NCBI RefSeq assembly: GCF_048403405.1
Contig: NZ_CP183129.1
DNA: 64,000 nucleotides
From: Escherichia coli
GTDB taxonomy: Bacteria > Pseudomonadota > Gammaproteobacteria > Enterobacterales > Enterobacteriaceae
Strand: one strand, 5' to 3'
Position 1 is the stretch's first letter. Every line of letters begins with the position of its first letter. Positions 3,976-53,628 of this stretch are shown here, piece after piece. The position numbers were made by a program, and so were the translations under genes. Under the pieces are notes generated by a model that worked only from the letters and a program-made list of their open reading frames with translations, did not search any database and was not told where the DNA came from.

Positions 3976-3987
3976 CTGTTCGCCCCC

Positions 3988-9507: not shown

Positions 9508-9520
9508 CATCCTCTCCTGA

Positions 9521-9547
9521 CCAGCCCTTCTCTGGGCTGGTTTTTGA
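9521..9547 (+). terminator. Rho-independent terminator after the porin gene
   Basis: ccagccc-ttctct-gggctgg followed by TTTTT, 14 nt after stop. Confidence 0.8.
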
Positions 9548-9676
9548 TTTAAGTGCTGCTGTATGACTCCTTAAGTAAAAATGAGCAATTTTTGATATTT
9601 CTGGTCACTCACCTCAATTAATATTCTTCCATACCCTCCGGGGACATCTTACTATAATATTTATTGATGTGTGATT

Positions 9677-10936
9677 ATGACCAATATTAATACAGCTTGT
9701 GTAAAAAATAATGCCAGTTATCAATTAAATAACGCATTACCTAACAAAGAAACCATCTCCAGCAATTTTTGTGAACGACTGGCAAAATGGGGTAATAAGT
9801 CGCTTAATAATGGTGAAGAAAGAGCAATTGCCGTAGAGCGAATTAAAGAAGCTTACAATTCGAACATGGCATCTCTTGATTTGTCATATCTTGATTTGAG
9901 TGAGTTACCGACTATCCCCTCGACAGTTAACACGTTAAATCTGGAAAACAATTGTCTCACTTGTCTTGACTTTACTGACAATGCCAGCCTCGTCAATATC
10001 AACCTCAGCTTTAATAAAATTAAAACGATAACCTTTCCAAATGAATCAAAACTGGAAAATATTTATATTGATCACAACAATCTGGAAAGTTTGGATTTAA
10101 AAAATCAGCATTCATTGGTTAACCTGGAAGCGCAAAATAACAATCTGACAAAAATTAACATTTCTGATAGTTATAAACTGAAATTTCTTAATCTTGATTA
10201 TAACAAGCTAGCATCGCTGGATCTCTCCCGGCAAGAATCTCTGATTGAGTTAAGTGCCCATCACAATATGATCACTGACCTTATATTACACAATCATCCC
10301 AGGATGAAAAAAATCACTTTAAACGACAACCATATTGCACATTTAAACGCGAAAACCACTACAAAGCTGGAATATTTAAACTTAAGCAATAACAATTTAT
10401 TGCCAACAGATGACATTGATCAATTAATATCATCAAAACATCTTTGGCATGTATTAGTTAACGGCATCAACAATGATCCACTTGCCCAAATGCAGTACTG
10501 GACTGCAGTAAGAAATATAATTGATGACACTAATGAAGTGACCATTGAATTATCTTATAACCTGGCAATCACAAATATCGATACCAGCGATGAACATCTT
10601 GTAGAAGTAAGCGAGAATTCCGAAGGAAATCATATAAAAGACAATGACTCAATGTCTATTCGTTATAGATCAAAATATTATTCCAGAGAGTACGATTTAA
10701 TAGAAGAAGAAACAATATTTTCTGACGCAGAACTAAAAGCCATTCTGCCTATGCATCGCATGTACGGGGTTGGTGACTATAAGTCAAATTCCTCTTCTCT
10801 ACCCTCACACTCGGGGCTAAAGGACCCAACGGGCACACCCGTCTGTTATTATATTCATAATGAGGATAAACCTTCCTTAGGTTATGGTTCAACACCCAAT
10901 AATTGGTTAAGCCAATCCTTTTCTACAGAGTTATAA
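9677..10936 (+). CDS. yddK: Leucine-rich repeat protein with an IpaH/SspH/YopM-like LRR N-terminal region; no signal peptide; no NEL ligase domain
   Basis: ORF 9671..10936 (GTG; ATG at 9677 chosen); N-terminal ...ERIKEAYNSNMASLDLSYLDLSELPTIPSTVNTLNLENNCLT followed by about 21-22 aa LxxLxLxxNxL repeats; AT-rich; symbol by position relative to K-12 yddK. Confidence 0.75.
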   Translation: MTNINTACVKNNASYQLNNALPNKETISSNFCERLAKWGNKSLNNGEERAIAVERIKEAYNSNMASLDLSYLDLSELPTIPSTVNTLNLENNCLTCLDFTDNASLVNINLSFNKIKTITFPNESKLENIYIDHNNLESLDLKNQHSLVNLEAQNNNLTKINISDSYKLKFLNLDYNKLASLDLSRQESLIELSAHHNMITDLILHNHPRMKKITLNDNHIAHLNAKTTTKLEYLNLSNNNLLPTDDIDQLISSKHLWHVLVNGINNDPLAQMQYWTAVRNIIDDTNEVTIELSYNLAITNIDTSDEHLVEVSENSEGNHIKDNDSMSIRYRSKYYSREYDLIEEETIFSDAELKAILPMHRMYGVGDYKSNSSSLPSHSGLKDPTGTPVCYYIHNEDKPSLGYGSTPNNWLSQSFSTEL

Positions 10937-10997
10937 AACACATCCTGATTTATCAAGGGTGATAAATCAGAAAAGAAAGTATTACTACGGAGCAGTT

Positions 10998-23895: not shown

Positions 23896-25872
23896 ATGCA
23901 GCTTAATCATATCGTTAAAAGTCTGCTAATAACGGGATTATTCACCACCAGTTCTTTACCTCTCCTCGCGGCGGAAGCTCCTAAAGACGCCACCGCAGCC
24001 ACGCAACAAGCAAACAATTTACTCTACAACCAGTTGCCGTTTGCCGATAACACTGACTTTACTGATGCCCATAAAGGTTTTATTGCCCCTATCCCTCAAG
24101 ACGTGATTAAGGGCGAACAAGGGAATGTTATCTGGGATCCACAACATTACGCTTTTATCAAAGAAGGCGATAAAGCCCCTGATACGGTGAATCCGAGTTT
24201 ATGGCGTCAGGCGCAACTGATAAATATCAGCGGGTTATTCGAAGTAACTGAAGGTGTCTATCAGATTCGCAATCTCGATCTATCAAATATGACCATCATT
24301 GAAGGCAAAGAGGGTATTACCGTCGTTGATCCCCTTGTTTCAGCAGAAACAGCCAAAGTGGGTATGGATCTCTATTACAAAAATCGCGGCAAAAAACCGG
24401 TAGTGGCGGTTATCTATACACACAGTCATGTCGATCACTACGGTGGTGTTCGTGGCGTAATTGATGAAGCTGACGTTAAATCAGGCAAAGTTAAAATCTA
24501 TGCGCCAGCCGGATTTTTGGAGGAAGCCGTTTCCGAAAACATCATGGCTGGCAATGTTATGAGCCGACGAGCCAGTTATATGTATGGCAACTTATTGAAA
24601 CCTGATGTTAAAGGCCAGGTGGGGGCTGGACTGGGAACGACTACTTCAGCAGGAACAGTCACGTTGATTGCTCCTACTAACTACATCACCAAAACCGGAC
24701 AAAAAGAAACTATTGACGGGTTGACTTATGATTTCCTGATGGCGCCAGGTTCTGAAGCGCCTTCTGAAATGCTGTGGTTTATTGAAGAAAAGAAACTGAT
24801 CGAAACCGCTGAAGATGTCACGCACACCCTTCATAACACCTATTCGCTGCGTGGGGCTAAAATTCGCCAACCGCTGCCGTGGTCAAAATATATTAATGAA
24901 GCTCTCAATTTGTGGGGTGATAAAGCCGAGATTATTCTCGCTCAACATCACTGGCCAACCTGGGGCAACGATAACGTGGTCAAACTGCTTAAAAGCCAGC
25001 GTGATTTGTATCGTTACATCAATGATCAAACTCTGCGCATGGCTAATCAAGGGATGACCCGTGATGAAATTGCCGCAAACTTTAAACTGCCCTCTTCACT
25101 GGCTAACACCTGGGCGAATCGCGGCTATTACGGTTCGGTAAGTCATGACGTGAAAGCAACTTACGTGCTTTATCTCGGCTGGTTTGATGGTAACCCCGCG
25201 ACGCTTGATGAACTGCCGCCAGAAGAAGGCGCAAAAAAATTCGTCGAGTATATGGGCGGTGCTGATGCCATTTTACAGAAAGCCAAACAGGATTATGACC
25301 AGGGTAATTTCCGCTGGGTTGCCCAAGTTGTTAGTAAGGTGGTGTTTGCCGATCCAAACAACCAGGCAGCGAGAGATCTGGAAGCTGATGCGCTTGAGCA
25401 GTTAGGCTATCAGGCTGAATCTGGGCCGTGGCGTAATTTCTATCTCACTGGTGCACAGGAATTGCGTAATGGCGTACAAAAATTACCAACACCAAATACT
25501 GCCAGCCCAGACACCGTGCGTGCGATGACGCCGGAGATGTTCTTTGATTATCTTGCCGTCCATATTAATGGTGAGAAAGCGGCAGATGCCAAAACCGTGT
25601 TGAATTTCGATTTTGGTGAAGATGGCGGCACCTATAAAGTGGAGCTTGAAAATGGTGTTCTCAATCATACCGCTGGTGTAGAGGCTTCGGATGCTGATGC
25701 CACTATCACTCTGTCTCGTGATGTATTGAACAAAATTGTACTGAAAGAAGAGACGCTGAAAGAAGCCACGGCCAAAGGAGATGTCAAAATTACTGGCAAT
25801 GAGGAAAAACTCAACGAGCTGTTAGGTTATATGGATAATTTTGAATTTTGGTTCAATATAGTGACACCATAA
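23896..25872 (+). CDS. Periplasmic alkyl/aryl-sulfatase-like protein (metallo-beta-lactamase fold, SdsA1/YjcS family)
   Basis: 658 aa; signal peptide MQLNHIVKSLLITGLFTTSSLPLLAA; MBL motif YTHSHVDHYGG; C-terminal SCP2-like region; not at this position in K-12 as I recall it. Confidence 0.8.
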   Translation: MQLNHIVKSLLITGLFTTSSLPLLAAEAPKDATAATQQANNLLYNQLPFADNTDFTDAHKGFIAPIPQDVIKGEQGNVIWDPQHYAFIKEGDKAPDTVNPSLWRQAQLINISGLFEVTEGVYQIRNLDLSNMTIIEGKEGITVVDPLVSAETAKVGMDLYYKNRGKKPVVAVIYTHSHVDHYGGVRGVIDEADVKSGKVKIYAPAGFLEEAVSENIMAGNVMSRRASYMYGNLLKPDVKGQVGAGLGTTTSAGTVTLIAPTNYITKTGQKETIDGLTYDFLMAPGSEAPSEMLWFIEEKKLIETAEDVTHTLHNTYSLRGAKIRQPLPWSKYINEALNLWGDKAEIILAQHHWPTWGNDNVVKLLKSQRDLYRYINDQTLRMANQGMTRDEIAANFKLPSSLANTWANRGYYGSVSHDVKATYVLYLGWFDGNPATLDELPPEEGAKKFVEYMGGADAILQKAKQDYDQGNFRWVAQVVSKVVFADPNNQAARDLEADALEQLGYQAESGPWRNFYLTGAQELRNGVQKLPTPNTASPDTVRAMTPEMFFDYLAVHINGEKAADAKTVLNFDFGEDGGTYKVELENGVLNHTAGVEASDADATITLSRDVLNKIVLKEETLKEATAKGDVKITGNEEKLNELLGYMDNFEFWFNIVTP

Positions 25873-25886
25873 ATTTACTGCATACC

Positions 25887-25909
25887 GGGCAGGTATCCTG
25901 CCCTTTTTT
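25887..25909 (+). terminator. Rho-independent terminator after the sulfatase gene
   Basis: gggcagg-tatc-ctgccc followed by TTTTTT, 15 nt after stop. Confidence 0.8.
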
Positions 25910-25918
25910 GGTTAAAAA

Positions 25919-27016
25919 ATGGCTGAACGAAGAAAAACGCATCACTCATGGAAAACCCGCCGCGATATGGTTATTCGCGGCATGACGATTAGTTTGCCAT
26001 GGTTTGCTTTTATCAATGTCAGTTTTGCATTGATAATTTTGCTGCGCCGTGTTCTGTTTAATGACCTTACTCCACCCTGGTTAAATGAAAAAAGCCTTAT
26101 ACATTCTATTGATATATCTGCAACGGGTATTCTGCTGATTTGCAGTGGTTTACTACTCATCCCTCGGCAAAAAACATTACCTATCCAGGTGCTATTAGTT
26201 GCCCTGAGCCTGCTATGGTCATGGTGTAGTTATCACTTTATTGCGTACTGGACGCTGCAGTTTGCTTATCCACTATGTGTATTATTAATGCTTAGTGGCG
26301 TTGTCGCACTTTATTTCCATACCCCATCATTGCTCGCATTTGTCATTCCCTTATGGTTCACCACTCCAATAGCGAGTCTTATGCTTAATCAACAGATCAA
26401 TATTCATTTTGCTGTTGTATGGTGTATTTTTTCACTGGCGCTATATGGTGGGCGACTCATTTTGTTACGTTGGTTTGAAGAAGCATGGGTACAAAACAGT
26501 TATAACAACCAGTTAATTAATCGCCTTGATGCATTAGCACATCGTGATCCTTTAACTGGGATAGCAAACCGACGTGCAATGAACAGTATCTTACACGACG
26601 CGATGGATAACGGCGGGTCATTTGCTCTTATTATGCTGGATGTCGATTTTTTTAAACGTTACAACGACACTTACGGGCATCCTGCTGGGGATCGTTGTCT
26701 AATACAAGTTGCCGACGCTCTACAGCGTTCAACTCGCCAGTCGGAGGATGTTGTTGTCCGTTATGGTGGCGAAGAGTTTGCCATCATACTTTTTAATGCA
26801 ACATTGCCGGAAGCAGAGACGGTAGCAGCCAGAGTGAAGCAAGAACTTAAACTGGCAGCTATCCCACATCAGGCATCTGCTGTTAATGCATTTGTTACGG
26901 TTAGTCAGGGGATTACCTGTTCTGCTCCCGCAAAAACGGCTGAACAAATTATTTCAGATGCCGACGCTGCGTTATACCGGGCGAAAGAAAGTGGGCGAAA
27001 TCGATGGGCTTTATAA
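25919..27016 (+). CDS. Membrane-anchored GGDEF diguanylate cyclase (multi-TM N-terminal sensor-like domain)
   Basis: 365 aa; about 6 predicted TM helices then GGDEF domain with RYGGEEF active-site motif and D-x-LTG; start codon uncertain (ATG at 25919 lies 10 nt after a terminator U-tract with no SD). Confidence 0.8.
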   Translation: MAERRKTHHSWKTRRDMVIRGMTISLPWFAFINVSFALIILLRRVLFNDLTPPWLNEKSLIHSIDISATGILLICSGLLLIPRQKTLPIQVLLVALSLLWSWCSYHFIAYWTLQFAYPLCVLLMLSGVVALYFHTPSLLAFVIPLWFTTPIASLMLNQQINIHFAVVWCIFSLALYGGRLILLRWFEEAWVQNSYNNQLINRLDALAHRDPLTGIANRRAMNSILHDAMDNGGSFALIMLDVDFFKRYNDTYGHPAGDRCLIQVADALQRSTRQSEDVVVRYGGEEFAIILFNATLPEAETVAARVKQELKLAAIPHQASAVNAFVTVSQGITCSAPAKTAEQIISDADAALYRAKESGRNRWAL

Positions 27017-27089
27017 GCATTAGGGGACTGGACAGATTACGTCTCTCCTCGCTTAACAAGGGCTGACGGAGGGTAATAATTGTCTATAG

Positions 27090-27641
27090 CTATCTTCTTA
27101 GCGATGTCTTTCTGGTATCACATTGGATCGGTGCAATTATTTTTCCTTTAATACCCATTATGTTAAGAAATTCAGAAACAGCTGTAATCTCATTGTTTTT
27201 TTCATTCGTCTTGATCTTACAAGGAATCTGACTGTGCATTATTGAGAACACACTAATAACGTGAATCGCTCCCTTGCGACGACTCTTGTCATAAGAGTAC
27301 CGGAGCGTTTTTCCATCAATTGCAATGACGTCTTTATCATCTGAAGAATGGCAGTCAAGCATCCAGTTAATAAAGCACTCATGAAATTTTTCAGGACTGA
27401 TACAGGATACAACTCTGGCAATGGTATCGTGAACAGGAATACCATTATCAAAATCACCATATTGCTTCAAAAAATCGAGATGTGTTTCCCCAAAATCCTC
27501 TATATCTTCCCAGCCTTCTGCACCCGAAATAACGGCACAAATAGTCAACAGTAGAATATCCGATAATTTATGTTCCACTTTCCAGGCTTGTCTGTAATCG
27601 GGGATAATAGAAATATGTCCCATCAATTTTTTAAGTTCCAT
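27090..27641 (-). pseudogene. ISAs1-family (H-repeat, YhhI/YdcC-like) transposase, 3'-truncated fragment
   Basis: N-terminal about 166 aa match the H-rpt protein ([12 protein letters not shown]...[11 protein letters not shown]...IDGKTLR) then the frame diverges and stops; full-length homologs are about 378 aa. Confidence 0.8.
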
Positions 27642-27789
27642 TTTGTTCTCCTTAATTATGTAAGGAGTATTTGATCATGTATACGCAATAAAAAACAGCT
27701 TCAGGTAATGAGGAATATCTCAATTGTTAAACATAAAATGCGAATTGTCTAGTACAAAAAAGCAGCGTTACGTGATCTTTCCGTGGATC

Positions 27790-27912
27790 GTCAAATTGTT
27801 CGAGAGAAAATACCAACATGATGGATTTTACTGTAAAAGTAATGTCGTAGTTTAAAAACTCATCATCCGGTAAAGCCTTGTGGGGCGTGGGCTTTCATAC
27901 TTTTACCCTGAT
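27790..27912 (-). repeat. ISAs1/H-rpt element upstream end (copy 1 of a conserved roughly 120-bp block)
   Basis: tcaaattgttcgagagaaaataccaacatgatgg...cttgtggggcgtgggctttcat...ccctgat is about 85 percent identical to 34529..34650. Confidence 0.65.
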
Positions 27913-28226
27913 GTCTGCTATACGCCGGACACCCTTTACGTAGCATTCGGAATTCACCCGTAAATTTATCACGGCGGTATCACGAAACCTCCGGTTCTGA
28001 TGCCGCTTAGGACTAACGACACGTCAACACAGGTTCGGGTTTATTCATTTCACTGTATCTCATATAATCTGAGCACTCCCCCTGCGCTCGCTACTATGAC
28101 TCTTTACCACAGCAACCGGGGTTGTTTGGGATCGGCTTTCAACAGCAGATCCCGGTGGCTATTGCAAGTAAGTCTACTTTCCACATCAGTGTTACTGACA
28201 CAGAAAATAATGAGTTATGATCCTTG

Positions 28227-28712
28227 TCATATTTTTAATATAGCCCCATGAGCTATAGGATCAAAACCTTCTAACCATGAGGTGTTTTTATCGAATAATG
28301 CACCTGTTATATTTATATCGCCATATCTATCACATAATAAATTAGCGCCACATAAGTCAGCACCAGAAAAATTTGAATCTTTAACGTCTGCATTGCAAAA
28401 GGTTGAATTAGTTAATATAGCACCCTCAAAGTTTGCACCTATTGACCTTGAATTACTAAAGTCACTTCCAGTGAAATCTGAGTTATTAAGAATAGCGTTC
28501 ATCAGAGCCGCATTGCGAAAGACAGCATTTCTAGTTGATGTATGTTGAATCATTACATTTCTTAAATGGGAATTTTCAAATTTCGCCCCATCAAGACAAT
28601 AACCATTGAGGATGGCACGATGTAGATCCATCCCGCTAAAATCATATCCAGCAAGAGTGGTACTATCTATATCAAGAAATTTATTGGTTATTAAAAACGC
28701 GATTCTTATCAT
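28227..28712 (-). CDS. Pentapeptide-repeat protein; putative cognate immunity protein of the adjacent Rhs toxin
   Basis: 161 aa; tandem A(D/N)(L/F)xx pentapeptides ([11 protein letters not shown]..., [33 protein letters not shown]); start ATG overlaps Rhs stop (ATGA) so translationally coupled; AT-rich. Confidence 0.8.
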
Positions 28713-31700
28713 CTATTCCCCCAATCATCTAACTCCGGAAAAATTTGGCTAAACGGATATAGTGGTGCCGATAATGGACGCGTACCTGGCCGCTCAGGAG
28801 GAAGTTTATCACATAACAGACCCGCAACCATCCTGTGATTACCATTAACAATCACATTCCCATCCATATCAACCGGTGGTGCTCCACTACCATCTTCCAG
28901 CATTTGTACGTAGTGAGCTACTACGGGTACTGAGACTTTTTGTTGTACTGTCAACAAGGGACTGTTGGCCACAACCATCCTGATGTTTTCAGGTGTCGTA
29001 GGTAAACATTTAGTCTTCTCTTGACTAAAGGTATCATCCCACAATTTTGTTAAACCCATCACTGCCTGTTGTCTGTATTTATCCATGGGGTCAGCAATCA
29101 ACCAAGATGGACCTGACTGCTCTATGGAATCTTCTCCGGAGAGACCCAACGGATCTATCTTAGTAGTTGGATTCAATGGATACTGATACAGGTTCCATGC
29201 ACCTCTTAGCCCAATGGGATCCTGGGTGATATACCGCCCCTGCAACGGGTCATAGTACCGGTTGCGGTTATAGTACAGCCCCGACTCCTCATCATACTGC
29301 TGCCCCGGCAGACGGTACGGCTGTTGCAGTTGCTGCGCGCTGGTTTCGCCCAGCAGGTTTCCCCACTCGTCATACTCCCCCTGCCACGCCGTTTCCCCTT
29401 CCGGGCTGATGAGCGCCTGCGGCAGCCCCCGGTGGTCGCAGTGGTAAAGATGAAGTGTCCTCTCCGGGATGTATTCCGCCTCCATCTGGTTTTTCATCTG
29501 TTCCGCCGTCAGCCCGCACTGCTGAAGCCATGCCTCACTCTCCGCACTCACCGCACCCGCGCGCAGTTCCCGCTCCAGCCTCCCCAGCATCACCGACAGC
29601 TCCGCCGGTAGCGTCACCCCCGTGTCCTCCTGCAACACCTCCGCCAGACTCCGGTGCCGCGCCTTCGCCTGTTCACCATTCTCTGTTTCGATTCTGATGA
29701 GCGGCGTGAAGCTCCCCGGCTGGTATACCGTCTGGATACGCGTGGTGCCGGTCTGTACCGTCGTCAGCCTGTCACCGTCCCACCCGTACCAGGTCTCCTC
29801 CGGTTTACGCGACAGCGACATCCACCCCGTCAGGTCACGCTCCCGCCGCCACACCCGTTTCCCCGTCCGGCGGCCCAGCGGGTCATAGAGGTAGCGGCTC
29901 TCCACCTGTGGCTCGCCGTGCTGTATCCGCGTGTAGAACACCAGGCGGTGCTGGCTGTCGTAATGGTAGTGGTGCGTCCGCTCGTCGTGCATCCGTATCA
30001 CCCCTTCCGGGATACGGTCCGTCTTCTCCGCCAGCCTGCCGTATTCATCGTAGCGGTAGACATAGTGCGCATCTTCCGTGATGCGGTTATCCGGCCACGC
30101 CGTGAAGGTGCTGTCCGGGTGCAGTTCCGGGTCCGGCAGCCGGTTTCCTGCCGGGTCCGTCGCATACGGGATATCGATATCCAGGTTCGCCGCCGTGGTG
30201 TGAACGCCCGTCAGTCTTCCCGTGTCGCTGTAACGGTACTTCCGGCTCTCCTGCGGGCCGCTGATGCGCACCAGTTGCCCGTTATCGTTCCACGTATACT
30301 CACGGTCAAGCTGCGGAAGGTTCAGGTGCCTGCTCCGGAGCTGCCCTGTGAGGGTGTACGCCGTGGCCTGTTCGTACCCCGCTGTACTGCCCGCCCCGCC
30401 GAAGCTGCGGGCCGTCTCACGGTGCAGCCGGTCCCGCGTGTACTCGACCAGCGGCGTTCCGCCCAGCTTCATCCCCGCAAGATAACCGCTGCCATACGTC
30501 AGCCACTCCACCGGCGGCAGACCGTCCGGCTCCTGACGGGTCGCCAGCCCCTGTTCGCTGTAGACGTGCCTCGTCTCATGCTCCCACAGCATCTCCCCCG
30601 TCTCCTGGTTCTCCACCGTCTGCCGTTCGCCCGTCAGGCGGCCTTTATCGTCATAGCCGTAGTGGACCGCCACACGGTGGCCTTCGCTCAGGTGGCTGAT
30701 TTCTGTCAGCCAGCCGTGGTCGTCATACTGCCACTGCTCCGCCGGGTCGCCGTTCACCGTCCGGTGCGTGATGCGCCCGGCGTCATCGTAGTACCACTGC
30801 GTGACCTGCCCCTCATCCTCGCTGCGGATGAGCTGCCCTGTGGCGCTGTACCGGTAACGCTGTGTCCTGCCGTCAAAGCCGCGCTGCTCCGTCAGCCTGT
30901 CCACCGGGTCATACCGGAACGTGGACTGGCTGCCGTTCTCGTTGGTCAGCACGGTGATGCGCCCGGCGGCGTCATACTCCATGCTGCGCGTCAGTCCGCC
31001 CTGCGTGGTGCTGACGGCCTTTCCCCACGCATCATACTGTGTCTCACTCCGGCTGCCGTTCGGGGCAATGATAGCGGTGAGGTCGCCTGCGGCGCTGTAC
31101 TCATAACGGGTTTCACGTCCCTGCGCATCCTTCTGACTGACCAGTTGACCACGCGGGTTATAACTGCTGTAAGTGCTGATGCCTTCCTCCCGGTGAACCG
31201 CCGTCCTCTGACCGTACCGGTCGTATTCATACCGCGTCGTGTACCCTGAACAGTCCGTAAATGCCTGAAGCTGACCGTACCGGTTTCGCGTTATTCTCCG
31301 CCTCACCCCGGTTCCGTCTTCCACCGCACAGGGCAGGCCACTGCGGGAAGAATCATAAAACCAGCGCGTAATGTTACCGTTGCGCGAGACCTCTTCCGCC
31401 AGCCTGCCCTGACGGTCATATTTCCGGCTGCGGCGCAGCCCGTCCGGGTACGTCACTGACGTCAGTTGCAACTGGTTGTTGTAACCATACCGTACCGTCC
31501 TGCCGTCCGGCAGTATCACTGAAGTCAGCTTTCCCGACGCCATATGCAGCCGGTACTCCGTCCGCCGTCCCGCCGCATCCGTCTGCGCCTTCAGCCTCCC
31601 CGCCTCATCATACTCGCTGCGGGTGATGCTCCCGTCCCCATACTCCTTCTTCACCACCCGCTTCAGGCCGCCCTCGCCCTCCGTGTACAGCACCTCCCGC

Positions 31701-32920
31701 CGGTTCAGGCTGTCCGTGATGGTCACGCGGTCCTGCCCGTACTCAAAGCGGTAGTCCAGCCCCTCCGGGTTGACCTGCTCCGTCACCCGACCGGTATCAT
31801 CATACCGGTAGCGGCTCTCCGGCCTCCCCGCATAATGGTGCGCCACCATCCGCCCGGCGTGCTCCGCATCATAAGTAAACCCGCGCACCTGCGTCCCGCT
31901 GCGGTCATACACCGCCCGCAGTTCTCCGCTGGCCGTGTACGTGTAGCGCGCCAGCGGCGCAGTCGGCAGTTCATCCGGGTATGCCGGGTCGTGTGTCAGC
32001 CATACCGCCTCCAGCCGGATACCGTTATCGGCACCGTACTCTGTACCGGTGGGCAGCGTGTCGGGGAAAAACTGAGAAGAGGAAACAGAACGGGGACTGG
32101 CCGGAGAAGATAAAGAAGACTCGCGCTGTTTACGGAAGGCTTTCGCCCGCTGCGCCTGTGTGGTCAGCGCCAGATGAAAACGGCGGCCCGCGCCGTCCGT
32201 CACCCCCGTCACCGCGCCCGCCGCTTCCCCCTCTGCCGCCCGGTGGAAGGCCAGCGTCCGCCCGAAGCCGTCCACCACGCCCGTCAGCACCCGGTATGCG
32301 GGCGGCTCCGGCGGCAGCACCTCGTCCGCCTCCGGCACCCGCTCCGGCCAGCCGAGTATCCACCACGGCCCCTGAAGGCTGTTTGTCGCCAGGTACACAT
32401 GCGGGCTTAAGCGGAGACTCTCCGGCAGCACCTGCCAGAGCGCGCTTAGCGGCTGCGAACTGTGCTGCTCCGCCACCCCGCCCCTTGCCAGCCAGAACGA
32501 CTCGCTGCGGCTGTAGCTTATCTCGCCGGGAAACAGCGGCTCAAAGTGAATGCTCCTGCCGCCACTGTCGTTGAGTATCAGTTCCCGCTCATGAACCTGT
32601 AAGCGGATATCGAAGGGCGCTTTCCAGCCGGGACCAAACACCCCCACCGGCGCGGGTGTCCTGGTCCGGTAGCTGCTGTAGGCGCGGGAAAGAATAAACG
32701 GCAACGGGCCGGGCAGCGCAAGATCCGTCTCGCCCGGCAGCACCTTCGCACCCAGTAGCGGGTTCACCGGGTTACCCTTCTGCTCCTCCACCGGGCTGTT
32801 GGGACACACCGAGCAGGCCACTCCCGTCGGCGCACCTATCAGCACCCCCGCTGAACCCTGCACAATATCCAGTCCCTTGCGGGTCATATCGCCCTGTCGC
32901 GCCGCCGGTTTTCCGCTCAT
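28709..32920 (-). CDS. Rhs-family polymorphic toxin (PAAR-containing N-terminus, YD-repeat shell, DPLGL-delimited variable C-terminal toxin tip)
   Basis: 1403 aa; N-terminal [13 protein letters not shown]...[12 protein letters not shown]; many YD repeats ([18 protein letters not shown]...); conserved PxxxxDPLGL just before the last 143 aa; GC-rich core, AT-rich tip. Confidence 0.93.
28712..29140 (-). other. Rhs C-terminal variable toxin domain (last 143 aa), family not recognised
   Basis: Sequence after DPLGL: [10 protein letters not shown]...VVAHYVQM...[17 protein letters not shown]...ELDDWGNR; base composition drops relative to the Rhs core. Confidence 0.6.
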
Positions 32921-32939
32921 GGTTTATTCCTTAAATTAT

Positions 32940-33131
32940 TTATGGTTTTATTCTGAGTGCAATCCATACTGATTCATAACCAGTGAATAAGATTTCCCCG
33001 AATAATCTATATAAATTAGCGAAGTCCTCTTCACTAATTAACCGTAAAATCCCGTACCAATGAAATATAAAAATAACCACCCACACAAATTTATTGCAAA
33101 TATTATTTATTATTGTATATACATCATTCAC
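32940..33131 (-). CDS. Hypothetical small hydrophobic protein immediately upstream of Rhs (may be spurious)
   Basis: 63-aa ORF with GTG start in an AT-rich region; ends 17 nt before the Rhs start; no recognisable domain. Confidence 0.2.
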   Translation of the reverse strand: MNDVYTIINNICNKFVWVVIFIFHWYGILRLISEEDFANLYRLFGEILFTGYESVWIALRIKP

Positions 33132-33341
33132 TGAACGTTCTCAAACTGCATACCTTAGAACCATCAATTAAAGCCACAACAAAAAAAATCGATTACTTTA
33201 TGTCGCATGACAAATATGAATTACATATTAATCAACCTTAAAAACAATCATCTCTTATAATTAACAGCATACCATGAGAAACACAAAATCAATTTACCAT
33301 GCATACCAGGAGCATAATTAACCTCTCACCGCAGGGCGAAA

Positions 33342-34478
33342 TCATGAAGGCCCGCAGCCAGCAAGGATTAGAGAAAGGTATTCATTCTTACGTCCTGCCC
33401 GCTTTTGCTTGCGTTTAATACCCGCTTTAAAGCTATTCTCTGCGGTCAGTAAATTCATCGCGATATGTCGACAAACTGCCAGATTTTCTCCCGCTTCTCC
33501 ACGAACAATCTGGCATTCATCTTCCCGCATCCCCATATCAAGTCGCCAGTGCAGTTGATTTTCTACCGACCAGTGTGCTCGTGTTGCTTCCAGGAGTTCT
33601 TTCGCCGTAAGCGTCACCGAACTTATGTAGTAGCGAAGAATACACTTCTCTGATTTCACCGCTGTTTCTCCTTCCTGTCTGCTCGCCAGCACTATTCCTA
33701 TCGTGCTCAGCTCTGACCATTCATAAGCTAAATCACCCAGAGCGGTTAAATCATGGCTCACAATGCAGCATCGTGTATCTTCCCGTCCATGCCCTTTTTC
33801 CTGCGTGCTGTAACTGTCATACCTCTCACCCAGCCACATTGTCGGCGAGTACCCGTTATCAAACGCCTCCGCTAATTTTCCCTGATTTCCTTTCAGCGCC
33901 AGCAGGTAACCGGCTTTCTTTTTCAGAATTTCACGGGCGATTATATGCTGGCAACCCATTGCATCCAGCGTGACCAGACACCCTTTTAATTCCAGCAACT
34001 GGAGCCGTTCCGGGATCGCCGTTATCTCATTCGATTTTGCCCCTGTTTTCACCTGCCCCAAAACCAGACGATTTTCTGCGCTAAAAGCACTGACCCTATG
34101 GATCACGGCATTACGTTTCGATTTATCGTAAGTACCCCGTAATGACTTACCATCAATCGCCACAACAGAGCCTTCAGACAACGTGTGACAGTCCTTCATC
34201 TACTGGATAAAAAGGGGCTGTAATTGTTTTGCTGAAATCATTCCCATCACTCGGGCAATCGTGTGATGGGAGGGGGTGCCATTTTCAAAATCACCATACA
34301 GGCGTAACCATTCCAGATGCTCCTCACCAAAATCAGCAATTTCTTCCCATCCTTCAGCGCCACCGATAATGGCGGTGATCGTCAGAAAAAGGATATCCGC
34401 CAGGCTGTAACTGGTTTTCCAGGACTGGCGATAATCGTGAATAATTGAAATTTGATCCAAAAGGCTTAGTCCGTTCAT
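33342..34478 (-). pseudogene. ISAs1-family (H-repeat) transposase gene inactivated by a single in-frame amber codon
   Basis: ORFs 34200..34478 (92 aa) and 33342..34199 (285 aa) are in the same frame separated only by TAG at 34200..34202; together 378 codons, the length of an intact H-rpt protein; the stop sits where homologs have Trp (…FINW-MRDCH…). Confidence 0.85.
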
Positions 34479-34528
34479 GGTGTGCTATCCATCAAAAAGA
34501 AAGGATAAGATCACACTGAAATAAGATG

Positions 34529-34650
34529 GTCAAATTGATCGAAAAAAAGATCAACATGATGGGTTTTACGATAAAAGTAATGTCGCGATTTAAAAATTCA
34601 TCATTCACCAAAGTCTTGTGGGGCGCGGGCTTTCATGCTTTTTCCCTGAT
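34529..34650 (-). repeat. ISAs1/H-rpt element upstream end (copy 2)
   Basis: Paired with 27790..27912 (see above). Confidence 0.65.
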
Positions 34651-34888
34651 ACGCTACCGCTCTGCCCTGATAACATGATCTGCACGGCGCTATCATATCG
34701 ACATATTTCTCTACATGCGAAAGGATGTTTTATTTTCGGATTATATTAAATTGATATTTCATATAAAAAACGAGATTACATAAATCATATAAATAATTGT
34801 ACCAACTTTAATTACCATTCATAGCAAACAAATGGATGTCCAGTTAACTACGCCAGTGATTTATTAACATTAATCTCCGGCATTATTG

Positions 34889-35495
34889 TTAAATAATGGC
34901 ATTCCTTTTTAGTATTTCTTGTAACGTTGGTATCGGACATACAGCATCAGCAATCGCACTGATATTCGCGGCATTATCTTGAAACCATTCATGCCCCGGT
35001 CCCCATATGCGCATAACGCAGAGATAAGGGTAGCTGATCGCCAAACGCATAAGGTTCAGCAGTGAGCTACGAATTCAACCAGATATAAAACGATTTTCGA
35101 TATTCAATAACATTCTTCTTTAACTGTTCGGGTGCGTCAGGAGCCCAACGCTCAGGGTAATCGGCGAAAGTGAATGTTGGATAGACATTAGCAACCAGCC
35201 AGACCAATAGCCGTTGAAACTGCTGACGTTCGGCGCGCCCAACCGGTGGCGCAAGGTCCGGGCGACGATCGAGAACCATCAATGCAATCGCCGCTGTCTC
35301 CGTCATAATCTCGTCATTTTCCAGCGCCAGTGTCGGAATCTGACACAACGGGTTCAGGGTTTTCAATAACTCGCGTGAGGTTCCCTCGTGGTCAAAACCA
35401 CTGACATCAACGAACTGATAAGGAATATCAGCCAGTGTTAGCATCAGCTCACTGATTGTAGAGCCCCATCCGGGTACGCCATACACCTTAATCAT
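34889..35495 (-). pseudogene. yncG: Glutathione S-transferase homolog, disrupted (in-frame TAG plus a frameshifting deletion)
   Basis: N-terminal 142 aa intact (MIKVYGVPGWGSTISEL...YIWLNS) then TAG at 35067..35069; the GST C-terminal region (...WGPGHEWFQDNAANISAIADAVC...) continues in another frame; total 607 nt, not a multiple of 3. Confidence 0.75.
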
Positions 35496-35761
35496 ATGCC
35501 CCTCACAATCTTTTAAAGATTAAGTGTAGGACAGTACACAGGTTAACCAGCAAAAGGATTTGTCATTTTTTCGTCAGTTGTATTATTCCCCTTCAGGATT
35601 GTAAGGGGATGTTTTGCATCGTTTATCGATAACGGGTAGGATGCTGCGCCGATAGTTTTATACCCATAAAGAATAATGGTGATAACTATCATCGCCAGGA
35701 TGAATAAACATTGTTCATGGCAACTTATATGACTTTTTCATTAAAGCAATCAGGGAGAGCA

Positions 35762-37261
35762 ATGAGTAAACACGACACCGACACTTCAGATCAACACGCC
35801 GCGAAACGCCGCTGGCTTAATGCCCACGAAGAGGGGTATCACAAAGCGATGGGCAATCGCCAGGTACAGATGATCGCCATTGGCGGCGCGATTGGTACGG
35901 GTTTGTTTTTAGGCGCGGGAGCCCGACTGCAAATGGCGGGGCCAGCACTGGCACTGGTCTATTTGATCTGCGGCCTGTTTTCATTTTTTATTCTGCGTGC
36001 ATTGGGTGAGCTGGTGTTACACCGCCCTTCCAGTGGCAGTTTTGTCTCTTATGCCCGTGAGTTTTTAGGAGAGAAAGCCGCTTACGTTGCAGGCTGGATG
36101 TACTTCATCAACTGGGCGATGACGGGGATTGTCGATATTACCGCCGTCGCTCTGTATATGCATTACTGGGGTGCGTTTGGCGGCGTGCCGCAGTGGGTCT
36201 TTGCGCTCGCTGCGCTGACCATCGTTGGCACCATGAATATGATCGGTGTGAAATGGTTTGCCGAGATGGAGTTCTGGTTTGCGCTTATTAAAGTGCTCGC
36301 CATTGTTACCTTTTTGGTCGTGGGTACAGTGTTCCTCGGTAGTGGTCAGCCGCTGGATGGCAACACCACTGGTTTTCATTTAATTACCGATAACGGCGGC
36401 TTCTTCCCCCACGGTTTGCTGCCTGCGCTGGTGTTGATTCAGGGCGTAGTGTTTGCTTTTGCCTCCATTGAAATGGTGGGTACAGCTGCCGGAGAATGTA
36501 AAGATCCGCAGACCATGGTGCCTAAAGCCATTAACAGTGTGATTTGGCGTATTGGCCTGTTTTACGTCGGCTCCGTGGTGTTGCTGGTTATGTTATTGCC
36601 GTGGAGCGCATATCAGGCGGGGCAAAGTCCGTTCGTGACGTTTTTCTCTAAACTGGGTGTGCCATATATCGGCAGCATTATGAACATTGTGGTGCTGACC
36701 GCTGCCCTCTCCAGCCTGAACTCAGGTCTGTACTGCACCGGACGTATTCTGCGCTCAATGGCGATGGGCGGTTCCGCACCGAGTTTTATGGCGAAAATGA
36801 GTCGTCAGCATGTGCCGTATGCCGGGATTCTGGCGACACTGGTTGTGTATGTCGTCGGCGTATTCCTCAACTATCTGGTGCCGTCGCGCGTATTTGAGAT
36901 TGTGTTGAACTTCGCGTCGCTGGGAATCATCGCCTCATGGGCGTTTATCATCGTGTGCCAGATGCGCCTGCGTAAAGCGATTAAAGAAGGCAAAGCCGCG
37001 GATGTCAGTTTTAAACTGCCTGGCGCGCCCTTCACTTCCTGGCTGACATTACTGTTTTTGCTGAGCGTCCTGGTGCTGATGGCGTTCGATTACCCGAACG
37101 GGACTTATACCATCGCGGCGCTGCCGATTATCGGTATTCTGCTGGTTATAGGCTGGTTTGGTGTGCGCAAACGCGTTGCTGAAATTCACAGCACTGCGCC
37201 AGTCGTCGAGGAAGATGAAGAACAACAGGAAATTGTGTTTAAGCCTGAAACGGCGAGTTAA
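35762..37261 (+). CDS. ansP: L-asparagine permease (APC family)
   Basis: 499 aa from MSKHDTDTSDQHAAKRRW within ORF 35711..37261; amino acid permease signature. Confidence 0.93.
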   Translation: MSKHDTDTSDQHAAKRRWLNAHEEGYHKAMGNRQVQMIAIGGAIGTGLFLGAGARLQMAGPALALVYLICGLFSFFILRALGELVLHRPSSGSFVSYAREFLGEKAAYVAGWMYFINWAMTGIVDITAVALYMHYWGAFGGVPQWVFALAALTIVGTMNMIGVKWFAEMEFWFALIKVLAIVTFLVVGTVFLGSGQPLDGNTTGFHLITDNGGFFPHGLLPALVLIQGVVFAFASIEMVGTAAGECKDPQTMVPKAINSVIWRIGLFYVGSVVLLVMLLPWSAYQAGQSPFVTFFSKLGVPYIGSIMNIVVLTAALSSLNSGLYCTGRILRSMAMGGSAPSFMAKMSRQHVPYAGILATLVVYVVGVFLNYLVPSRVFEIVLNFASLGIIASWAFIIVCQMRLRKAIKEGKAADVSFKLPGAPFTSWLTLLFLLSVLVLMAFDYPNGTYTIAALPIIGILLVIGWFGVRKRVAEIHSTAPVVEEDEEQQEIVFKPETAS

Positions 37262-40813: not shown

Positions 40814-41528
40814 TTGTGCACAGAAAACCCCCAGCTAGGCTGGGGGTTCCGGAAAGCTTTCAGCTTTAAGCCAGTTATTAAAACCCCTTTTGATTTGTTA
40901 AAACACCTTGCGGTCTGGCAACTGCAAGTGTCAAACAAGAAATCAAAAGGGGGTCCCAATGGGGAACGAAAAGAGCTTAGCGCACACCCGATGGAACTGT
41001 AAATATCACATAGTTTTTGCGCCAAAATACCGAAGACAGGTGTTCTACAGAGAGAAGCGTAGAGCAATAGGCAGTATTTTGAGAAAGCTGTGTGAGTGGA
41101 AAAGTGTACGGATTCTGGAAGCTGAATGCTGTGCAGATCATATCCATATGCTTGTGGAGATCCCGCCCAAAATGAGCGTATCCGGCTTTATGGGATATCT
41201 GAAAGGGAAAAGCAGTCTGATGCTTTACGAGCAGTTTGGTGATTTGAAATTCAAATACAGGAACAGGGAGTTCTGGTGCAGAGGGTACTACGTCGATACG
41301 GTGGGTAAGAACACGGCGAAGATACAGGATTACATAAAGCACCAGCTTGAAGAGGATAAAATGGGAGAGCAGTTATCGATTCCCTATCCGGGCAGCCCGT
41401 TTACGGGCCGTAAGTAACGAAGTTGGATGCAAATGTCAGATCGTGTGCGCCTGTTAGGGCGCGGCTGGTAAGAGAGCCTTATAGGCGCATTTGAAAAACC
41501 TCCGGCTATGCCGGAGGATATTTATTTA
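40814..41528 (+). mobile_element. IS200-like insertion sequence, copy B (inverted relative to copy A)
   Basis: Near-identical to the reverse complement of 1680..2394 with a few substitutions; boundaries +/-3 bp. Confidence 0.85.
40959..41417 (+). CDS. tnpA: IS200/IS605 family Y1 transposase TnpA
   Basis: 152 aa from MGNEKSLAHTRWNCKYHIVFAPKYRR; differs from copy A at a few residues (e.g. D3N, LAFYG to QVFYR). Confidence 0.9.
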   Translation: MGNEKSLAHTRWNCKYHIVFAPKYRRQVFYREKRRAIGSILRKLCEWKSVRILEAECCADHIHMLVEIPPKMSVSGFMGYLKGKSSLMLYEQFGDLKFKYRNREFWCRGYYVDTVGKNTAKIQDYIKHQLEEDKMGEQLSIPYPGSPFTGRK

Positions 41529-49653: not shown

Positions 49654-50799
49654 TTAGCGACCGCCCATAATGGCAATGTAATCCTGCGTCCAGCGACTGT
49701 AGGGAACAAACTTGCCCCCTTCTGCTATAGGCGTTTTCCAGAAGGCGATTTTGTCGAAATAGTTAAAACCGTTGGTTTCACAACCTTTTTCGCCTAATAA
49801 CGGACTGGCTTTACACCCTTCCGGCACTACCGGTAACGAGCCAAACCAGGCCGCCACATCGCCCTGCACTTTTGGCGTTAATGACCAGTTCATCCATTTG
49901 TAGGCGCAAACCGGATGTTTCGCTTCGCTATGCAGCATGGTGGTATCAGCCCAACCGGTAACACCCTCCTTCGGGAAAACGGTAGCAACAGGCTGGCCTT
50001 CGGCTTTCAGGGCGTTGGCCTGATAGGGCCAGGCACTGGAAGCAACCACACCCTCGTTTTTGAAATCGCTCATTTGCACGGTAGTGTCATGCCAGTAGCG
50101 ATGGATCAAACTGTGTTGAGCGCGCAGCACTTTCAGCACCGCCTGGTACTGTTCTTCGGTTAGTTGATACGGATCGCTGATGCCCAACTGCGGCTGAGTG
50201 GCTTTAACGAACAACGCAGCGTCCGCAATGTAGATAGGGCCATCATAAGCCTGAACGCGGCCTTTATTGCTCTTGCCGTCCGGCAGATTTTGCTCAACAA
50301 AAACCACTTGCCAGCTATCCGGCGGCGTCGGGAAGGTTTTAGTGTTGTACATCAGCAGGTTCGGCCCCCATTGGTAAGGTGTGCCGTAAACTTTGCCGCC
50401 AACATTAAACCAGTCGCCTTTAACCACGCGCGGATCGAGCGTTTTCCAGTTGGGAATCAAGGCGGTATTAATCGGCTGCACGCGTTTGCCCATAATCAAA
50501 CGCAGCGAGGCATCGCCGGATGCCGTAACCAGATCGTAACCCCCTTTGGTCATCAGACTGACCATTTCATCGGAAGTCGCGGCGGTTTTCACATTCACCG
50601 CGCAGCCTGTCTCTTTTTCAAATTGCGTTACCCAGTCGTATTGTTTATCAGTTTGTCCGCGTTCGATGTATCCCGGCCAGGCGATAATATCCAGTCGCCC
50701 TTCCGGTTTATCTAAATTGGTAGGTGGTTCGGCGGCGTGAGCGGTCATTATTGTCATGGTGAGCGCACACAGGCTGCTGCGGGCAAATGTCTTGCTCAT
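49654..50799 (-). CDS. ydcS: Periplasmic substrate-binding protein (polyamine-type)
   Basis: 381 aa with signal peptide. Confidence 0.92.
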   Translation of the reverse strand: MSKTFARSSLCALTMTIMTAHAAEPPTNLDKPEGRLDIIAWPGYIERGQTDKQYDWVTQFEKETGCAVNVKTAATSDEMVSLMTKGGYDLVTASGDASLRLIMGKRVQPINTALIPNWKTLDPRVVKGDWFNVGGKVYGTPYQWGPNLLMYNTKTFPTPPDSWQVVFVEQNLPDGKSNKGRVQAYDGPIYIADAALFVKATQPQLGISDPYQLTEEQYQAVLKVLRAQHSLIHRYWHDTTVQMSDFKNEGVVASSAWPYQANALKAEGQPVATVFPKEGVTGWADTTMLHSEAKHPVCAYKWMNWSLTPKVQGDVAAWFGSLPVVPEGCKASPLLGEKGCETNGFNYFDKIAFWKTPIAEGGKFVPYSRWTQDYIAIMGGR

Positions 50800-51043
50800 A
50801 AGGTCTTACTCCTGTCGTAATTAATTGTTCAGCCGCCGTGCCGTAAAAATATCTCCTTGTTTAACCATAGACGGCGGCTAGCAGGCACACCTTCGCCCCT
50901 GAGAAAATTTAATCAGGTTGTGAGCTACCGCGCATTATGCCGTCTGTAAGGTTATCTTCTGGAGTATAGACAAGGAGTTAGGAAATATGACTGCTATTCG
51001 AAATTCATATTACCCAACCTGAGAGGAATTTAATTAAACGCTA

Positions 51044-52450: not shown

Positions 52451-52528
52451 TATCGAATCGTAATTATGTGCAGATGATTCGGCAGTCTATATCAGTTGTT
52501 AAAAATGACAACTTTTCGTTAACTGTAA

Positions 52529-52945
<417 letters not shown>

Positions 52946-52990
52946 AATTTCGACTGTCTCTCGCATGTCATTAACCTTTTTAATTGGCGA

Positions 52991-53619: not shown

Positions 53620-53628
53620 GTCATTTGT

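Follow-up and report, generated by a model that had tools for sequence, protein, structure and literature searches.

A proposed orphan Rhs effector-immunity module at the Escherichia coli rhsE site, with a single PAAR-like repeat and a probable T6SS-2 delivery route in trans

In a 64,000-nucleotide stretch of Escherichia coli DNA (referred to as the window herein; contig NZ_CP183129.1), we found an intact rhs gene at the rhsE site. We propose that it forms, with the small gene downstream, an orphan ("neighbourless") Rhs effector-immunity module which, judging from sequence comparison, is probably delivered in trans by a T6SS-2 encoded ∼1.46 Mb away. The gene architecture, its conservation, the homology to Tse5 of Pseudomonas aeruginosa, the occurrence in one genome of a T6SS and a paralogue that matches, and the fact that a local vgrG is lost or absent are established. 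Several observations count against delivery in trans, namely an N-terminus that scores below the PAAR threshold with one repeat out of three, an AF2 model that is not confident for residues 1-103, the lack of a sigma-70-like promoter site upstream on the gene's strand, and ISAs1 pseudogenes on both sides of the element.

The rhs gene and its architecture

The Rhs reading frame proposed in the preliminary description at 28709-32920 was confirmed on the minus strand. It begins with ATG and encodes 1403 residues, of which 1-1260 match NCBIfam NF041261 ("RHS element core protein") with 2513 bits against a cut-off of 2000. The gene, its parts, and its flanks are as follows.

27090-27641, minus: truncated ISAs1-family (H-repeat, ydcC-like) transposase pseudogene, downstream flank of the element
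28227-28712, minus: presumed immunity gene, 161-aa pentapeptide-repeat protein WP_000618048.1
28709-32920, minus: intact rhs gene, RefSeq WP_001563834.1 ("RHS element core protein")
28709-29140, minus: codons 1261-1403, variable C-terminal toxin domain, putative ParB/sulfiredoxin-like fold with an invariant GNHR motif
29141-32542, minus: codons 127-1260, YD/RHS-repeat cage and Rhs-associated core (RHS_repeat, RHS, and TIGR03696 matches)
32543-32776, minus: codons 49-126, DUF6531, N-terminal plug of the cage (Pfam E 1e-18)
32771-32833, minus: codons 30-50, invariant anchor followed by a variable linker
32834-32920, minus: codons 1-29, single PAAR-like repeat, presumed VgrG-tip-binding element (sub-threshold Pfam PAAR_motif)
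32921-33341, minus: 421-bp AT-rich spacer upstream of rhs, where relatives have the vgrG 3′ end
33342-34478, minus: ISAs1-family (H-repeat) transposase pseudogene interrupted by an internal stop, at the O157:H7 position of yncH and vgrG
34889-35495, minus: yncG pseudogene with a frameshift and an internal stop, chromosomal boundary of the rhsE insertion site

Pfam RHS_repeat matched the protein in 11 stretches (E 1e-76) and TIGR01643 in 13; Pfam RHS was also matched, and the Rhs-associated core profile TIGR03696 scored 80 bits over residues 1183-1260. The core of the gene is GC-rich (59-65% GC) and its 3′ end AT-rich. Identity to paralogues and orthologues stops at residue ∼1260, beyond which lies the variable C-terminal region. 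By its repeats, its PxxxxDPxGL core end, and its C-terminal toxin followed by a small downstream gene, the protein is classified from sequence as a YD-repeat polymorphic toxin.

Among proteins of solved structure, Tse5 (RhsP1, PA2684; PDB 8cp6), a T6SS effector, is the best match (E 1.5e-120). In each of the two proteins an N-terminal fragment of ∼50 residues precedes PVNP, directly in front of which lies the cleavage site (a predicted one in the present protein); a DUF6531-type plug and a YD cage follow, then the DPxGL site of an aspartyl protease and the C-terminal toxin. The DUF6531 region aligns with the N-terminal plug of the Tse5 shell (Tse5 residues 48-124), and the cage is homologous to the solved Rhs cages 8cp6, 7q97, and 8qja. 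Two DPxGL motifs close the core, DPIGL at 1234-1238 and DPLGL at 1256-1260, with the spacing of D1141 and D1164 in Tse5, which is cleaved after L1168; the Rhs protein probably self-cleaves after DPLGL-1260. Tse5 differs in lacking a literal PAAR signature, in having a pore-forming toxin, and in having a membrane protein as its immunity partner. We take tse5 to adjoin its vgrG.

Two further groups of Rhs proteins were compared. The prePAAR/Eag effectors (RhsA of P. protegens, 7q97; Rhs1/2 of S. marcescens; Rhs1/Tre23 of Photorhabdus, 7pq5) share the cage and plug, autoproteolysis motifs, and T6SS spike delivery, but they have an AARxxDxxxH motif, transmembrane helices, and a full PAAR, their N-terminal regions measuring 25-45 kDa, and a DUF1795 chaperone gene lies next to theirs. 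We rejected this class for the present protein, which has a Lys where AARxxDxxxH needs His and a maximum hydropathy of 1.28; no DUF1795 (Eag) gene is annotated in the window. The classical E. coli elements (RhsA-E of K-12) resemble the present one in combining a GC-rich core with an AT-rich extension and in being flanked by H-repeat (ISAs1) copies; vgr genes lie upstream of RhsE and RhsG. The core studied here is of the T6SS2-Rhs subfamily, and the gene is full length, whereas K-12 rhsE is presumably a pseudogene.

The rhsE site and a T6SS-2 elsewhere in the genome

The window spans the E. coli rhsE site (ansP-yncG...pptA), which we take to have the same borders in K-12 (ansP-yncG...ydcC-pptA on the K-12 map). 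The preliminary description had noted that vgrG, hcp, and tss genes were missing nearby, and this holds across the 64 kb. When Hcp (two copies), VgrG, TssA-C, TssE-H, TssJ-M, TagH, VasI, and VasL from a T6SS-positive genome having the same window were used as tblastn queries, only Rhs itself was matched (others E > 0.05), and in near-identical genomes RefSeq annotates no T6SS gene anywhere in the window. Directly upstream of rhs we did not find the vgrG of a vgrG-rhs auxiliary module; an ISAs1 pseudogene and the 421-bp spacer are there instead. At the same site O157:H7 has vgrG-rhs, with a VgrG 91% identical to that of T6SS-2 and an rhs to which our core is only 76.7% identical in DNA; here the ISAs1 pseudogene replaces vgrG. 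E. coli ST69 encodes a 94-aa canonical PAAR protein at this site. Among species representatives, vgrG ends 33-197 bp upstream in 15 of 34 related rhs genes, including that of the closest relative, from E. albertii, to which homology starts exactly at the rhs ATG. The spacer is lineage-specific, the upstream sequence being present in only 143 of 5426 genomes.

A genome-wide view comes from E. coli MS 69-1, whose DNA matches 36 kb of the window at 99.994% identity and whose Rhs at this site is the same protein. About 1.46 Mb from the Rhs site, in the aspV island, MS 69-1 carries a complete T6SS-2 cluster with tssA, B, C, E, F, G, H, J, K, L, and M, two hcp genes, and vgrG, directly followed by another rhs (hcp-vgrG-rhs). 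This vgrG-linked Rhs is 89% identical to the orphan over the core and has the same residue at 39 of the first 40 positions. At least 15 of the 25 listed carrier genomes are among the 60 best matches to the T6SS-2 segment. The suggestion that delivery could use a T6SS encoded elsewhere thus gains support from sequence.

PAAR-type Rhs proteins encoded far from T6SS genes have already been documented among E. coli Rhs elements, and the orphan position therefore opens no new question. A review describes "neighbourless" E. coli PAAR-Rhs (Rhs-Nb) related to T6SS2-Rhs and states that killing by E. coli Rhs-CT3 required ClpV2 (PMC6730261). As the Rhs-Nb/T6SS2-Rhs group of Ma et al. (2017, Environ Microbiol 19:345) is presented in that review, our protein shares its core, N-terminus, variable C-terminal toxin, downstream immunity gene, and lack of an adjacent vgrG or eagR. 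Going by the activities that the review gives, the toxin-immunity pair is not among Rhs-CT1 to Rhs-CT10.

The intact gene could instead be a silent reserve, neither expressed nor loaded since losing its cognate vgrG and the operon promoter, and persisting as a donor of toxin/immunity cassettes to the expressed T6SS-linked rhs and as protection, by way of its immunity gene, against kin that fire the same toxin. We consider this rather unlikely. It is favored by the pseudogenes on both sides and the missing vgrG and yncH relative to O157:H7, by the AT-rich spacer, and by a simple promoter scan that found no sigma-70-like site upstream of rhs on the gene's strand. Lacking such a site, and no longer in the hcp-vgrG operon from which its paralogue is driven, rhs may be poorly expressed. 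The 89% core identity offers ample substrate for homologous exchange, and in other strains the rhsA locus has orphan arrays that contain fragments of a related immunity gene. Recombination activates orphan Rhs toxins in Salmonella, and K-12 presumably retains only its rhsE pseudogene at this site. Against a silent reserve stand the undisrupted 4.2-kb reading frame, 100% conserved in about 140 genomes, and the full conservation of the N-terminal delivery element; the promoter scan is itself weak evidence, as read-through or non-consensus promoters are possible. Delivery in trans by T6SS-2 remains our preferred reading.

A single PAAR-like repeat at the N-terminus

A literal PAAR motif near the N-terminus had been reported, and we located it at residues 5-8 (32897-32908), its sole occurrence in the protein. 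The composition of Rhs leads one to expect 0.037 such tetrapeptides per protein, and 2.7e-4 within its first ten positions. Since the motif is invariant in all 32 related enterobacterial Rhs proteins compared, whose overall identity is only 56-92%, it is not a chance match. It belongs to a PAAR/GD signature, GKPAARQGD (residues 3-11). Further invariant positions in this set, besides PAAR5-8, are G3, D11, T13, G16, Q21, G22, V26, and G29, then T32-P40 except V34 (≥90% conserved), and G49, P51, N53, and P54.

Whether this segment is a PAAR domain was judged with profiles. The isolated N-terminus scored 16.2 bits against Pfam PF05488 (PAAR_motif), below the gathering score of 27; the match covers residues 2-29 only, corresponding to profile positions 21-51 of 70. 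Residues 1-148 scored 13.7 bits against the same gathering score, and the full-length protein had no match to PAAR_motif at E ≤ 0.01. A profile built from full PAARs did not find the N-terminus, and hhalign against a canonical PAAR profile gave 92% probability over 10 columns only. In the canonical PAARs 4jiv and 9rce, it is the last repeat to which residues 2-29 align. Canonical PAARs (PF05488; V. cholerae VCA0105, PDB 4jiv; the 94-aa ST69 protein) share the GxPAARxGD....GG.I..G...V.IG repeat, but have three repeats in about 90 residues that form a cone with a His/Cys metal site, whereas Rhs has one repeat in 29 residues. The match is confined to residues 2-29, the plug starts at residue 49, and the three repeats of the cone were not found. 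By sequence, the N-terminus is thus assigned a PAAR motif, one of the three repeats of the PAAR cone, and not a full PAAR domain. The preliminary description was right about the motif and overstated its equivalence to the PAAR that caps VgrG spikes.

The layout matches, at the level of sequence, the 47-residue N-terminal fragment of Tse5, which has been called a "cryptic PAAR-like domain" and is needed for VgrG-dependent secretion. Tse5 is cleaved at K47|P48, with residues 30-47 anchored inside the shell. The first residue of chain B of 8cp6 (PVNPMLGSK) aligns with P51 of Rhs (PVNPLLGAK; E 1.7e-14), and N-terminal autocleavage of Rhs is predicted between N50 and P51. An AF2 model of residues 1-460 gave no confident structure for residues 1-103.

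How such a segment might cap a spike is a more tentative matter. We regard it as possible, if doubtful, that the 29-residue repeat is a minimal spike adaptor that works unlike the canonical PAAR cone: the T6SS-2 VgrG tip may be capped by one-third of a cone with two faces left free, or up to three Rhs N-termini may jointly rebuild the cone on the tip.

Quite improbable, in our estimation, is that binding to VgrG depends on something other than the PAAR-like repeat, with Rhs loaded through another contact (such as the surface of the cage or plug, the C-terminal tail of VgrG, or an adaptor) and the N-terminal segment serving mainly as a plug anchor. The repeat is single and below the Pfam threshold; in Tse5, which has no literal PAAR, residues 30-47 are a structural anchor and residues 1-29 are disordered; and the T6SS-2 VgrG has a proline-rich C-terminal tail. 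However, residues 3-29 of Rhs match the anchor in invariance, implying that the exposed part of the N-terminus has a partner with which it interacts. Furthermore, the alignment of the segment is specifically to a true PAAR repeat, and according to a paper citing Ma et al. (2017), the PAAR region is needed for Rhs translocation. We found no stand-alone PAAR gene and no canonical PAAR in the T6SS-2 cluster examined, and the Rhs N-terminus is therefore its only PAAR-like element.

A T6SS-independent route was also raised in the preliminary description. Such export of Rhs, for instance through lysis, in outer-membrane vesicles, or along a different secretion pathway, is very improbable: T6SS genes are missing within 64 kb and several rhs genes are retained in E. 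coli K-12, which has no functional T6SS, yet Rhs has no signal peptide and no transmembrane or hydrophobic segment (maximum Kyte-Doolittle 19-residue mean 1.28), all solved close homologues are T6SS effectors, and the same genome holds a complete T6SS whose own Rhs has a near-identical N-terminus.

Proposed mechanism and implications

The mechanism that we infer covers VgrG binding, the two cleavages, expression, the toxin target, and immunity. The 1403-aa protein would fold into a YD-repeat cage around its 143-residue C-terminal toxin and probably cleave itself after DPLGL-1260 and between N50 and P51. The 50-residue N-terminal piece would stay threaded in the cage through the invariant TGVACSVCP segment and expose one PAAR-type repeat (residues 2-29), which would dock on the VgrG trimer at its tip, competing there with the near-identical N-terminus of the vgrG-linked paralogue. 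Firing of the T6SS would carry the cage into a neighboring cell, where the putative ParB/sulfiredoxin-fold toxin would act, probably on DNA or a nucleotide substrate, and the pentapeptide-repeat protein encoded just downstream would protect sibling cells.

The start of the presumed immunity gene overlaps the rhs stop by 4 nt, and of 5426 complete E. coli genomes only 143 contain the DNA of toxin and immunity gene. The nearest described toxin domains would be Tox-ParB and Tox-ParBL1 of polymorphic toxins (Zhang et al. 2012, PMC3482391); the immunity families given there for Tox-ParB are Imm20, Imm27, and Imm-SuFu, and not pentapeptide-repeat proteins. If a pentapeptide-repeat protein, which has a DNA-mimic fold, does neutralize a putative ParB/Srx-fold toxin, the pairing would be one absent from that survey of polymorphic toxins.

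The locus shows that a 64-kb window is too small for judging effector-machine linkage in E. coli. The further value of the locus is modest. Its rare cassette pairs an uncurated putative ParB/sulfiredoxin-fold toxin family with a presumed pentapeptide-repeat immunity protein, and the "PAAR" of a large Rhs family is a single cone repeat for which no structure shows the contact with VgrG. If several Rhs N-termini do jointly rebuild the cone, the cluster-encoded and the orphan Rhs could share one spike.

The orphan rhs gene and its chromosomal site

The rhs gene of the window is an orphan, with no secretion gene beside it. Its position, strand, ATG start, length and starting residues are as the preliminary description gave them. 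The element comprises the following features.

27090-27641: ISAs1-family (H-repeat) transposase pseudogene, flanking the rhs element
28227-28712, minus strand: pentapeptide-repeat ORF, presumed immunity gene (161 aa), overlapping the rhs stop codon
28709-32920, minus strand: rhs, ATG start, 1403 aa
33342-34478: ISAs1-family (H-repeat) transposase pseudogene, flanking the rhs element

The product of the 28709-32920 ORF is a Rhs protein. The NCBIfam equivalog NF041261 ("RHS element core protein") covers residues 1-1260 with 2513 bits against a cut-off of 2000, and Pfam matched RHS_repeat (E 1e-76), DUF6531 (residues 49-126) and RHS. The GC content of the rhs core is 59-65%, compared with ∼40% in the flanks.

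The preliminary description had also claimed that the 64 kb hold no type VI secretion (T6SS) genes, and this was borne out. As tblastn queries we used proteins of the near-identical E. coli strain MS 69-1 (NZ_CP146675.1), namely Hcp (two copies), VgrG, TssA/B/C/E/F/G/H/J/K/L/M, TagH, VasI and VasL; rhs alone was matched, all other matches having E > 0.05. The RefSeq annotation lists no T6SS gene across the window, and searching the window with a profile of canonical PAAR proteins likewise yielded nothing. A vgrG remnant upstream of rhs was ruled out, since tblastn detected none and homology to vgrG-linked relatives begins exactly at the ATG.

The window is E. coli chromosome. Stretches 1-14000, 27000-36000 and 50000-64000 are 100% matches to MS 69-1 (2636071-2700071) and to a small number of further genomes, and 14001-50000 is 99.994% identical to MS 69-1, with an identical Rhs protein. 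One 1-nt indel somewhere in 27000-36000 sets the window apart from MS 69-1 and several otherwise identical genomes; annotated gene offsets place it at 34479-34889, between the ISAs1 pseudogene and yncG, leaving rhs untouched. The gene order is maeA-adhP...fdnGHI...narUZHWI-yddE-nhoA-yddH-pptA-sulfatase-GGDEF-ISAs1'-imm-rhs-ISAs1'-yncG'-ansP-yncE...ydcR-hicAB...tehAB...opgD, and from the K-12 map we take the site of the orphan rhs to be the rhsE site.

The yncG-pptA interval (window 32921-35495; locus L006, 12773-16607; locus L007, 12743-16607) is a hot spot for T6SS auxiliary modules. It holds yncH-vgrG-rhs in O157:H7, PAAR-vgrG(frameshifted)-M35 peptidase in ST69, and ISAs1'-rhs with a decayed yncG in the lineage of the window. 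Window 23896-27016, which separates pptA from the ISAs1 fragment on the downstream side, carries genes for an alkyl/aryl-sulfatase and a MASE5-GGDEF diguanylate cyclase, both absent from O157:H7 and ST69 in the nar-to-yncG stretch compared. Farther away, a low-GC island (∼8200-13000, 34-41% GC) between yddG and narU contains genes for an ompC-annotated porin paralogue and leucine-rich-repeat proteins, and in the related strain WP9-S17-ESBL-11 ISKpn26 is inserted at its edge. Two IS200/IS605-family tnpA copies, ∼96% identical to one another, lie beside yddM/fdnI (1791-2249) and between pqqU and mcbR (40960-41418).

The N-terminus of the Rhs protein

Of the PAAR motif that had been proposed for the Rhs N-terminus, the literal tetrapeptide stands and the PAAR domain does not. 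PAAR occurs once in the protein, at residues 5-8; given its composition, 0.037 such tetrapeptides would be expected in the whole protein and 2.7e-4 among its first ten positions. The Pfam PAAR_motif profile gave no match at E ≤ 0.01 on the full-length Rhs, and on the N-terminus it reached 16.2 bits, short of the gathering score of 27, with residues 2-29 corresponding to profile positions 21-51 of 70. In a comparison with PDB sequences, the same residues gave weak alignments (E 0.2-0.8) to the third and last repeat of canonical PAARs (4jiv, residues 67-93 of 93; 9rce, residues 71-98 of 99). When a profile of 27 Rhs N-termini was compared with one of 22 canonical 94-aa PAARs, only ten columns aligned, at 92% probability, the canonical side reading GLPAARxGDP. 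Because the Pfam score lies below the gathering score, residues 2-29 alone align and only ten columns are shared, the N-terminus is one PAAR-type repeat and not a three-repeat cone. The DUF6531 plug domain begins as early as residue 49.

We aligned 32 Rhs proteins, overall 56-92% identical, from genera that include Escherichia, Citrobacter, Trabulsiella, Buttiauxella, Rahnella and Serratia. Invariant residues include M1, G3, P5, A6, A7, R8, D11, T13, G16, Q21, G22, V26 and G29, and further on T32, G33, A35, C36, S37, V38, C39, P40, G49, P51, N53 and P54. This conservation marks the PAAR-type repeat as functional and no relic. An AF2 model of residues 1-460 made with this 32-sequence alignment gave pLDDT < 30 for residues 1-103, probably because the cage was truncated.

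The top PDB match of the Rhs was Pseudomonas aeruginosa Tse5 (8cp6, E 1.5e-120), above other T6SS Rhs cages, among them 7q97, 8qja, 8uy4 and 8h8a. The first residues of 8cp6 chain B, PVNPMLGSK, align with P51-VNPLLGAK of the orphan Rhs. According to the Tse5 paper, autocleavage occurs between K47 and P48 and yields a 5-kDa N-terminal fragment, in which the N-terminal plug anchors residues 30-47 within the shell and the first 29 residues are disordered; blocking cleavage did not impair killing. For the orphan Rhs, homology predicts two cleavages, one between N50 and P51 and the other after DPLGL-1260. The two proteins are alike in layout, but the PAAR signature kept in the E. coli Rhs is missing in Tse5, the N-terminus of which other papers call a "cryptic PAAR-like" domain without PAAR signature. 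Membership in the prePAAR/Eag chaperone class was excluded because the Rhs has no hydrophobic or transmembrane segment (19-residue hydropathy maximum 1.28) and no His at the prePAAR position, and there is no Eag/DUF1795 gene.

A T6SS-2 cluster elsewhere in the genome

MS 69-1 carries a complete T6SS at the known E. coli T6SS-2 location, the yafV...aspV interval (4,124-4,158 kb), ∼1.46 Mb from the orphan rhs. The interval reads ISEc1, a small ORF, rhs (1499 aa), vgrG, hcp, tssB, tssC, tssE, tssF, tssG, tagH, tssJ, tssK, tssL (icmH/dotU), tssH, vasI, tssA, tssM, vasL and a second hcp. The VgrG of this cluster has only the domains of a plain spike (Phage_GPD, Phage_base_V, Gp5_trimer_C) and lacks an effector extension, and none of the ORFs of the cluster encodes a PAAR protein. 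Over residues 1-1261, the vgrG-linked Rhs and the orphan share 89% identity, and among their first 40 residues only position 2 differs. The Rhs of the T6SS-2 cluster (MS 69-1, 4126-4158 kb; L004, 26366-33459, and L005, 1-8166) has the same one-repeat N-terminus as the orphan. After the vgrG-linked rhs comes ISEc1, likewise of the ISAs1 family; the orphan locus shows the same arrangement.

Of 5426 complete E. coli genomes, 2061 contain the hcp-vgrG-rhs-tssBC segment at ≥80% coverage, and at least 15 of the 25 listed carriers of the orphan locus are among the best 60 matches to this segment. Together with the complete T6SS-2 and the 89%-identical vgrG-linked Rhs in MS 69-1, this genome evidence supports the view that a distant T6SS delivers the orphan Rhs in trans, the first of the two routes named in the preliminary description. 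The rival reading, a silent reserve cassette, is less likely. It is favoured, though weakly, by a simple consensus scan of the 421-bp upstream spacer, in which the gene's strand showed no sigma-70-like promoter; against it, the 4.2-kb ORF has no disruption and is 100% identical in ∼140 genomes.

Relatives of the orphan rhs occur with and without vgrG. The O157:H7 VgrG at the orphan site is 91% identical to the T6SS-2 VgrG of MS 69-1. An origin by mere loss of vgrG from an O157-like ancestor was rejected as too simple: the O157:H7 rhs core shares only 76.7% DNA identity with the rhs of the window, which is therefore a member of the T6SS2-Rhs subfamily and no simple deletion derivative. Among species representatives, the closest relative is an E. 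albertii rhs that has the same 10-residue linker and whose DNA identity, 89%, sets in precisely at the ATG; there, vgrG ends 79 bp upstream. Among the related loci, 34 have upstream sequence of 2.5 kb or more; vgrG ends 33-197 bp upstream in 15 of them and is absent in 19, so orphan copies are as common as linked ones.

The C-terminal toxin and its published context

Only 143 of the 5426 genomes contain the immunity gene together with the coding sequence of residues 1261-1403; these carriers also have a second, partial immunity-gene copy. Downstream of rhsA (yibF...yibA; L055, 7036-7401), other strains carry fragments of a 95%-identical immunity gene within an array of orphan toxin and immunity genes. 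An exhaustive search gave 328 cluster representatives of the C-terminal domain at E ≤ 1e-3, compared with 6 matches by a word-indexed search. Among 150 listed representatives the domain lies at the C-terminus of proteins of 73 to 2388 residues, and Q, S and GNHR are invariant across a 38-member alignment. Pfam did not match the domain, its family profile gave nothing meaningful against PDB sequences and Pfam (ddrB-ParB, E 0.28, one member only), and Foldseek with a confident AF2 model (pLDDT 94.4) returned nothing significant. Tox-ParB and Tox-ParBL1 are ParB-fold toxin domains known on RHS proteins, the former with the immunity families Imm20, Imm27 and Imm-SuFu (PMC3482391); the survey nowhere uses the word "pentapeptide". 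The immunity candidate resembles Qnr/MfpA-type pentapeptide proteins at the repeat level only, below family cut-offs. DNA or a nucleotide is a putative target of the toxin.

That E. coli Rhs elements encode PAAR-type Rhs proteins remote from T6SS genes is known and has been described before. Ma et al. [quoted passage not shown] An in-silico study of EDL933 listed seven long "PAAR" Rhs genes, several without vgrG nearby, and Zhang et al. (2012, PMC3482391) proposed the N-terminal PAAR motif as a T6SS export determinant of RHS toxins. At the present locus, a one-repeat PAAR element would engage VgrG in a T6SS without canonical PAAR, and would serve a putative ParB-fold toxin.
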